Shown here in pieces: positions 9,850 through 9,978 of a DNA stretch of 64,000 nt. The notes under the pieces were generated by a model, which was given only the letters and a program-made list of their open reading frames with translations, was not told the origin of the DNA and made no database searches. The first letter of the stretch is position 1, and each line of letters begins with the position of its first letter. The stretch comes from a virus. Location of the stretch: positions 42,837-106,836 of IMG/VR virus record IMGVR_UViG_3300012943_000031; one strand, 5' to 3'. The translations under genes were made by a program, and so were the position numbers.

Positions 9850-9897
9850 ATGAAAATAACATCAACATATAGTTCCTTGTCGTTACTCTATAGCTAA
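9850..9897 (+). CDS. Leader peptide 3 (MKITSTYSSLSLLYS)
   Basis: ATG 4 nt after the -7 box; codons 7-15 only Y,S,L, the tRNA set downstream. Confidence 0.85.
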   Translation: MKITSTYSSLSLLYS

Positions 9898-9950
9898 TAG
9901 AGCCGGGAATACTATGTGTCAAAAATAACTATCTTGATTTTACATAACAT

Positions 9951-9978
9951 GACCCGGTATTTCTATACTGGGTTTTTT
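9951..9978 (+). terminator. Attenuator terminator 3
   Basis: GACCCGGTAT-TTCT-ATACTGGGTT + T tract; 5' arm alternatively pairs with GCCGGG(9902). Confidence 0.85.

Follow-up and report, generated by a model that had tools for sequence, protein, structure and literature searches.

The 64,000-nucleotide (nt) stretch of DNA analysed here, referred to as the window, belongs to a virus record of 106.8 kilobases (kb) (IMG/VR record IMGVR_UViG_3300012943_000031) and carries a 5.5-kb array of transfer RNA (tRNA) genes. The sequencing runs listed as containing this DNA are all DNA runs; the best of them is a soil metagenome, possibly its source. ARAGORN finds 26 tRNAs in this array at its default settings and 28 at a lower threshold. 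The tRNA-Ser(TGA) and tRNA-Tyr(GTA) of the third tRNA block, module C, were missed at the defaults and recovered with the lower threshold; hence, the cargo of this third unit includes Leu, Leu, Ser, Ser and Tyr tRNAs. Directly ahead of the block lies the element considered here, a short open reading frame (ORF) between a predicted promoter and an intrinsic terminator, which is a candidate transcription attenuator. The element and the genes behind it are arranged as follows.

9814–9985, + strand: candidate module C attenuator, from promoter to terminator (sequence, folding and comparison)
9814–9845, + strand: predicted promoter of the Bacteroidota type, TTTG-N20-TATATTTG (consensus match)
9850–9897, + strand: leader ORF of 15 codons, MKITSTYSSLSLLYS (ATG 9850, TAA 9895–9897)
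9866–9876, + strand: segment 1 (CATATAGTTCC), within the Tyr-Ser-Ser codons, pairing with 9906–9918 in the minimum free energy (MFE) fold
9902–9918, + strand: segment 2 (GCCGGGAATACTATGTG), partner of segment 1 or segment 3 (duplex search, folds)
9941–9960, + strand: segment 3, TACATA plus the terminator 5′ arm (CCCGGTAT) (co-transcriptional folds)
9951–9983, + strand: intrinsic terminator (3:4) with a 10-bp stem, a 4-nt loop and the tail TTTTTTGTTTT (stem 9951–9974 plus T-run)
9986–10060, + strand: tRNA-Leu(TAG) (tRNA search)
10063–10142, + strand: tRNA-Leu(TAA) (tRNA search)
10143–10368, + strand: reduced ribonuclease P (RNase P)-like RNA of 226 nt (match to RF00373 and homologue in LR756502)
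10371–10462, + strand: tRNA-Ser(TGA) (ARAGORN, lower threshold)
10471–10560, + strand: tRNA-Ser(GCT) (tRNA search)
10565–10638, + strand: tRNA-Tyr(GTA) (ARAGORN, lower threshold)
10675–10696, + strand: terminator closing the unit (terminator search)

The promoter consensus is matched six times in the 64 kb, against 1.1 matches expected, and four of the six stand at tRNA units (5017, 6144, 9056 and 9814). Since only 4 nt separate the −7 box from the ATG of the leader, its transcript is probably leaderless or almost so; the same spacing of TTTG, 4 nt and ATG recurs at the first attenuator of the array, described below, and at an RNaseH-like gene at 7044. The leader uses the five Ser codons TCA, AGT, TCC, TCG and AGC, the three Leu codons TTG, TTA and CTC, and TAT twice, which agrees base for base with an earlier note made on this DNA from the sequence alone. 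Ser, Leu and Tyr account for 10 of the 14 non-start codons, compared to a background of 0.187 in the long ORFs of the window (P 2.5e-5), and nine of them follow each other without interruption (P <2e-6). Five distinct Ser codons in a single leader are likewise not expected from the codon usage of the phage (P 0.009), whose genes seldom use TCG, AGC and CTC. The TAA of the leader is directly followed by a second stop codon, TAG, at 9898–9900.

Downstream of and within the leader, the RNA can adopt alternative helices. The pairings 1:2, 2:3 and 3:4, which had been proposed in the earlier note, were all recovered, 1:2 in the MFE fold, 2:3 in a duplex search and 3:4 in a terminator search. The 1:2 helix, formed by CATATAGTTCC (9866–9876) and GGAATACTATGTG (9906–9918), is contained in the MFE fold together with the terminator; at −31.9 kcal/mol (z −3.5), this fold was not equalled by any of 200 shuffled sequences. 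In the 2:3 helix, GCCGGG (9902–9907) pairs with CCCGGT (9953–9958) and TATGTG (9913–9918) with TACATA (9941–9946). It was found both by the duplex search (−12.3 kcal/mol, z −4.1) and by co-transcriptional folds. Segment 2 starts 4 nt past the TAA, as had also been noted before, and thereby within the footprint of a terminating ribosome. The terminator is located 5 nt upstream of tRNA-Leu, and in every unit of this kind a distance of 5–10 nt to the first tRNA was observed.

To detail the pairing during transcription, nascent transcripts ending at the terminator 5′ arm were folded, and the ribosome was mimicked by masking nt 1–37 or 1–46 (ribosome stalled at codon 8 or 11) or all positions up to stop+12 (ribosome at the stop codon). 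With the stall masks (codons 8–11) the 2:3 antiterminator forms in all nine module-C units folded. With the mask to stop+12 the terminator arm is essentially unpaired in all nine; no arm nt is paired in seven of them, and a weak residual pairing of 3/8 and 5/7 nt (−3.2 and −2.0 kcal/mol) is left in L006 and L010, respectively. The full-length MFE folds contain 1:2 and 3:4 in 9/9 units. In the related phages, the stop codon of the leader is found at or slightly beyond the 3′ end of segment 2.

The module C element has two sisters in the window, so that three units of promoter, ORF and terminator are present, one ahead of each tRNA block (modules A, B and C).

5017–5211, + strand: attenuator 1, with promoter, leader MNLHRTHTWFTTCPQCPFGGEGCCMCENK (5053–5142) and terminator; precedes the Pro, Thr, Cys, Phe, Trp, Gln, Gln, His and Arg tRNAs
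6144–6344, + strand: attenuator 2, with promoter, leader MYLINMIVDRINGAEKSGSGLLLS (6203–6277) and terminator; precedes the Lys, Val, Arg, Asn, Met ... Gly, Glu, Asp, Ile and Ala tRNAs

The core of leader 1, HRTHTWFTTCPQCPF, is composed of exactly the eight amino acids of the Pro-Thr-Cys-Phe-Trp-Gln-Gln-His-Arg block, all of them used and none other, and the core of leader 2, INMIVDRINGAEK, in the same manner of exactly the ten amino acids of the Lys...Ala block. With Leu, Ser and Tyr in leader 3, the three leaders jointly cover all 20 amino acids. Residues of the own module make up 18/28, 15/23 and 10/14 of leaders 1, 2 and 3, with runs of 15, 13 and 9 own-module codons (P ≤4e-8, 0.004 and ≤2e-6). 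Beyond the cores, module-B residues (GGEG..M.ENK) are abundant in the tail of leader 1 and module-C residues (S.S.LLLS) in that of leader 2; these tails may be structural, as they overlap with segment 2. A conserved mini-ORF or motif with the product GGCGCGG (MTILKGGGCGCGGKK in the window, 4947–4994) adjoins or fuses with leaders A or B in several phages. It was also seen in L004 (6368–6430) and in leader-fused form in L005, L012, L013 and L037.

For a comparison with related phages, loci were gathered via the RNaseH-like (YkuK) gene embedded in the array, whose more than 130 homologues led to 14 viral and 27 metagenomic loci. Most of the loci spanning the region hold the same three tRNA modules, sometimes in a changed order, and the leaders and terminators move with their modules. 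For module C, 20 distinct leaders were collected (the window and 19 other phage contigs), all with a core of 8–12 residues made up only of Ser, Leu and Tyr; the peptide core S-Y-Y-S-S-L-S-L-L is conserved. In a set of 28 attenuators (13 phage loci), virtually all amino acids for which a module has a tRNA are also encoded in its leader. In three loci (L006, L013 and L031) tRNA-Cys belongs to module B and not to module A; there, Cys is absent from the leader-A core and present in the leader-B core. The intrinsic terminator stands directly before the regulated tRNA genes in all relatives, too. An exact-pattern scan of IMG/VR for the conserved leader DNA returned only four contigs, all of which were already in the set. 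In the tRNA array of Aeromonas phage 4_4572, taken as a negative control and given a quick look, small ORFs are present and no such leaders or terminators were seen.

A segment complementary to the 5′ arm of the unit's own terminator is always located 50–67 nt from the ATG (mean z −3.5 against shuffles, 28 units). In 17 module-C units the pairing with the own arm averages −10.5 kcal/mol, compared to −7.3 kcal/mol with the arms of other loci (Wilcoxon p 2.5e-4). These own-versus-cross duplex tests are alignment-free; MAFFT aligned the leader region, and the terminators only poorly. The compensatory pairs include AGCCGGG/CCCGGT, GAGCTGGG/CCCAGCT, GAGCAGGG/CCCTGCC, GAGATTGGG/CCCGATCT, CGGGAGC/GCTCCC and ATAACAGGG/CCCTGTTA. 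As the peptide encoded at segment 2 is not conserved while the pairing covaries, the constraint is on the RNA.

The same build is found in a cultured phage. Cellulophaga phage phi38:1 (L018; Pervagoviridae) has three attenuators with a different partition of the amino acids, and each leader core matches its own module. The leaders are located at 708–785, 2169–2258 and 3412–3501, and the terminators at about 815–840, 2309–2340 and 3528–3560. By leader core, the tRNAs are as follows.

KTIMNIATDIRTKGVK: ahead of Lys, Ile, Gly, Met, Asp, Thr, Val, Arg(UCU) and Ile
YNNFSWYSNCSFSSYN: ahead of Tyr, Ser, Ser, Asn, Trp, Phe and Cys
LLHQEPLEQLRLP: ahead of Pro, Glu, Gln, His, Leu and Arg(ACG)

The different partition in phi38:1, the move of Cys between leaders A and B and the covariation of segment 2 with the terminator arm exceed what common descent would give. 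In the phi38:1 record, two of the leaders are unannotated or lie inside annotated 'hypothetical' ORFs (gp066 and gp070), gp067 is annotated over leader 2 on the opposite strand, and several tRNAs (Ile-TAT, Tyr, Trp, Cys, Met, Pro and Glu) are missing from the annotation. RNA sequencing of phi38:1 infection has been published, and the transcriptome paper does not mention the leaders (PMC5335546).

The codons used in the leaders were further evaluated for what they may sense. All 20 module-C leaders contain the codon classes TCN, AGY, TTR, CTN and TAT, one for each of the five tRNAs. The chance of finding all five classes is about 0.5 for a single leader and falls to between 0.03 and 0.001 for 5–10 independent lineages. 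Each of these leaders has exactly one TCC and exactly one CTC and never TCT, CTT or TAC, while in the phage genes TCT makes up 41% of the TCN codons and CTC 4% of the CTN codons. The clearest case is arginine. It is encoded by CGN in 11 of 12 leader-A cores, whose module holds tRNA-Arg(ACG), against a background of 31% CGN, and by AGA in 20/20 leader-B cores, whose module holds tRNA-Arg(UCU); phi38:1 shows the same split. Sensing of individual isoacceptors, as suggested in the earlier note, thus stands at the level of the codon box, with five classes in 20/20 leaders and Arg CGN versus AGA, and fails for the isoacceptors with C at position 34 (C34). The notion that every isoacceptor is sampled was rejected, since these C34 tRNAs have no exclusive codons in the leaders. 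The comparison supports a match of leader and cargo in codon boxes, that is, in tRNA species of which none can stand in for another.

Taken together, the element at 9814–9985 is probably a ribosome-mediated (leader-peptide) transcription attenuator that gates an operon of tRNA-Leu(UAG), tRNA-Leu(UAA), the RNase P-like RNA, tRNA-Ser(UGA), tRNA-Ser(GCU) and tRNA-Tyr(GUA). The attenuator proposed in the earlier note is now backed by 20 homologous leaders, by the covariation of segment 2 with the terminator arm, by three-state folding in 9/9 units and by phi38:1. The sequence elements, their alternative pairings with conservation and covariation, and the agreement of leader and cargo in amino acids and codon boxes are observed; from these we infer that the ORF is translated, that transcription and translation are coupled, and that stalling leads to regulated read-through. 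The host RNA polymerase would start at the TTTG/TATATTTG promoter, and a ribosome would load on the 5′-proximal AUG. With plentiful Ser-, Leu- and Tyr-tRNAs, the ribosome would reach the UAA and cover GCCGGG of segment 2, so that 3:4 could form and transcription would end 5 nt short of the first tRNA. Slow decoding at any one of the five codon boxes would instead stall the ribosome over segment 1 and leave segment 2 free to pair with the emerging terminator 5′ arm, resulting in read-through. Such slow decoding may stem from decay of the host tRNA pool after shut-off, from tRNA-cleaving defences or from a poor match to the codon usage of the host. The new phage tRNAs would then speed up translation of the leader and close the gate, a negative feedback. 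In an untranslated transcript, 1:2 would form and the terminator would win.

Several points weigh against this interpretation. The conserved TCC and CTC codons are located within helices, and RNA structure could account for them. For the C34 isoacceptors Lys(CTT), Leu(CAA), Arg(CCT) and often Gln(CTG), the leader contains no codon that is exclusive to them. The homologous leaders share ancestry, so the locus counts overstate their independence. At equilibrium, the full RNA keeps the terminator as the MFE structure in module C despite a mask on segment 1; equilibrium folding was therefore dropped as the relevant model and the co-transcriptional folds were preferred, and antitermination must rest on the order of folding during transcription, i.e. 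on a kinetic switch. In the unit of the window, the untranslated truncated transcript already favours 2:3, which makes the 1:2 lock weak there. The window leader is also the only one of the 20 that stops before segment 2, the others being 20–25 codons long, and it could be a decayed copy. Finally, to our knowledge, transcription-translation coupling has not been established in Bacteroidota.

Among the other explanations, a classical amino-acid-starvation attenuator, which would report the supply of Ser, Leu and Tyr via charged tRNA as the trp, his and ilv leaders do, survives best and still appears unlikely. The unit shares its architecture with the leaders of amino-acid operons, a stalled ribosome cannot distinguish a missing from an uncharged tRNA, and the unsampled C34 isoacceptors would fit as well. 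On the other hand, a sensor of amino acids needs no match in codon boxes, neither the division of Arg into CGN and AGA by module nor both Ser and both Leu boxes in 20/20 leaders, and additional tRNA would not cure starvation, which leaves such a circuit with no obvious benefit. For these reasons we favour tRNA supply with feedback, rather than amino-acid supply, as the signal.

Could the copy in the window be a degenerate relic, with an ancestor of 20–25 codons truncated by the early TAA/TAG and the unit now constitutive in either termination or read-through, in a family that is otherwise functional? The singular 15-codon length and the preference of the untranslated nascent RNA for 2:3 would agree with this. 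However, the Ser/Leu/Tyr core, the five codon classes, segment 2, the antiterminator and the terminator are all intact, and the double stop suggests selection for termination in a phage that has an amber suppressor tRNA. The position of the TAA 4 nt before segment 2 also matches the geometry of trp-type leaders, by analogy with which the window leader would be functional. Hence, we regard a relic as very unlikely. Equally improbable is a stand-alone RNA of ~130 nt (a small regulatory RNA or micropeptide mRNA) with the tRNAs read through from upstream promoters and no attenuation: the conserved peptide core and the lack of a recognisable consensus promoter directly upstream of the leader in L005, L009 and L012 would suit it, but three unrelated peptides partition the 20 amino acids exactly as the modules do, in two phage families with different partitions, for which a function of the peptides cannot account, the region behind the core varies as peptide and covaries as RNA with the terminator arm, and the terminator keeps its place just before the first tRNA in every unit.

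The cargo of module C further contains the RNase P-like element at 10143–10368. It adjoins tRNA-Leu(TAA) without a spacer, stops 2 nt short of tRNA-Ser(TGA) and occupies the interval between these two genes. Its alignment to the archaeal RNase P model RF00373 extends over the full length of the model (positions 1–288), with 28.1 bits locally and 36.1 bits (E 4e-10) per genome; across searches the scores range from 19.9 to 36.1 bits and are below the Rfam cut-off, a gathering score of 84. A scan of the region with Rfam at gathering thresholds returned neither RNase P nor any leader or riboswitch family. Of the catalytic core, P1–P4, CR-I (AGGAAA.UC), CR-V (ACAGAA...G.UUA) and the bulged U of P4 are present, P4 being formed by AAC-U-CAGC and GCUGGUU. 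The specificity domain (P7–P12) is mostly missing, with ~89 model positions replaced by 18 nt, and the element may resemble RNase P RNAs with a reduced specificity domain. A homologue of 205 nt is found in the 642-kb phage LR756502 (L017, 1461–1665), with 32.4 bits, a column identity of 76% and compensatory changes in P1 and P4, where P4 reads GU-U-CAAC with GUUGAC. LR756502 and the phage of the window are unrelated to each other, and both have such a reduced RNase P-like RNA of ~205–226 nt. In four related phage records, of which three are complete, the RNA is missing. From its sequence, the element is probably an RNase P-type RNA. As neither a promoter nor a terminator separates it from the neighbouring tRNAs, it would be co-regulated with them. 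Control of an RNase P RNA by the attenuator, as the earlier note had it, is therefore supported by position, while the identity of the RNA is probable and its score below the Rfam cut-off.

A wider interpretation goes further, to which we give slightly less than even odds. Bacteroidota phages may gauge the decoding capacity of the host box by box, with leaders that spell the tRNA content of their operons and operons that are switched on when one tRNA becomes limiting. The three leaders would then constitute a demand sensor for 20 amino acids, which would also gate a viral minimal RNase P ribozyme processing the induced tRNA precursors, and the rare C-ending codons TCC and CTC would be the most sensitive probes for tRNAs with U at position 34.

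Further features were observed in the array. A tRNA of the amber-suppressor type (anticodon CTA) is located at 9056–9171 with its own consensus promoter, and the 5′ end of the tRNA (TATACGGTACTG) recurs as an inverted repeat in its promoter region (CAGTACCGTATA). Directly 3′ of it, and still within the array, lies a gene for a PTH2-type peptidyl-tRNA hydrolase (9200–9664; Pfam PF01981, E 7e-7); a search for related loci via this PTH2-like protein found none. At 6784–6935, an acceptor stem and a T-arm resembling those of a tRNA are separated by ~75 extra bases. Only at the 80% threshold does ARAGORN report an intron-containing tRNA(CTA) here, and the sequence may represent an interrupted or decayed tRNA. 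The RNaseH-like/YkuK (PF04308) gene is a conserved member of these tRNA arrays; it and the inserted HNH endonuclease genes were noted at 7044–7511 and 7797–8195 in the window and at ~12400–12940 in L003. The insertion sites of the HNH endonuclease genes vary among the arrays, and in L003 one of them lies between the module-C attenuator and tRNA-Leu.

A sensor with codons that correspond to the controlled tRNAs would argue that the phage keeps watch over the supply of particular tRNA species. For the tRNA sets of phages, codon compensation, the replacement of a decaying host pool and the escape from tRNA-cleaving defences have been proposed as roles. The match between leader and cargo is a simple sequence signature by which such units can be searched for in other viruses, and the units offer compact, orthogonal codon-demand switches for synthetic biology. 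With the same design in cultured phi38:1 and RNA sequencing of its infection at hand, the idea can be tested directly. Should the RNase P-like RNA be active, it would represent a natural RNase P of very small size, carried by a virus.

The large tRNA arrays of T5-like phages, mycobacteriophages and huge phages resemble that of the window in a set covering all amino acids, but no regulation by demand is known for them. With regard to the mechanism, the leaders of ilvGMEDA, ilvBN, thr, trp and his share with module C a promoter, a short codon-rich ORF, mutually exclusive 1:2, 2:3 and 3:4 helices, a terminator before the cargo and a stop codon at which the terminating ribosome occludes segment 2. 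More than one amino acid is likewise read by the ilv and thr leaders. In contrast to these enterobacterial leaders, the phage units carry tRNA genes and an RNase P-like RNA instead of biosynthetic enzymes, their cores combine 3, 8 or 10 amino acids, the same set as the tRNAs of the operon, with three leaders covering all 20, and they are viral, with a Bacteroidota-type promoter and a probably leaderless mRNA. The Bacteroid-trp leader motif, a predicted peptide-leader attenuator of trp biosynthesis genes in Bacteroidetes, responds to a single amino acid and is non-viral; it suggests that ribosome-mediated attenuation exists in the presumed host phylum.

Control over a component of the decoding apparatus by a leader-peptide attenuator is represented by pheM of Escherichia coli, through which the level of charged cognate tRNA attenuates the synthetase operon pheST. 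There, the cargo is a synthetase, a single amino acid is read and the locus is chromosomal, whereas the product of the phage units would be the tRNA itself, resulting in a direct feedback loop. T-boxes, like the phage units, attenuate transcription according to the state of one particular tRNA, by means of a codon-like specifier and of competition between an antiterminator and a terminator. Unlike the phage units, they bind uncharged tRNA directly and without a ribosome, are typical of Firmicutes and control genes for aminoacyl-tRNA synthetases, biosynthesis and transport; the T-box covariance model gave no match in 4500–11200, either with the gathering threshold or with E values up to 5. In the literature, we found neither leader-peptide control of tRNA genes nor a phage RNase P RNA described, most subscription journals being beyond reach, and we know of no earlier case of attenuation governing tRNA genes. 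The mechanism would be that of classical ribosome-mediated attenuation, with the multivalent leaders of ilv and thr and pheM-pheST as the nearest counterparts. The tRNA cargo, the leaders equal to the tRNA content of their operons, the coverage of 20 amino acids by the set of leaders and the viral setting appear to be new.

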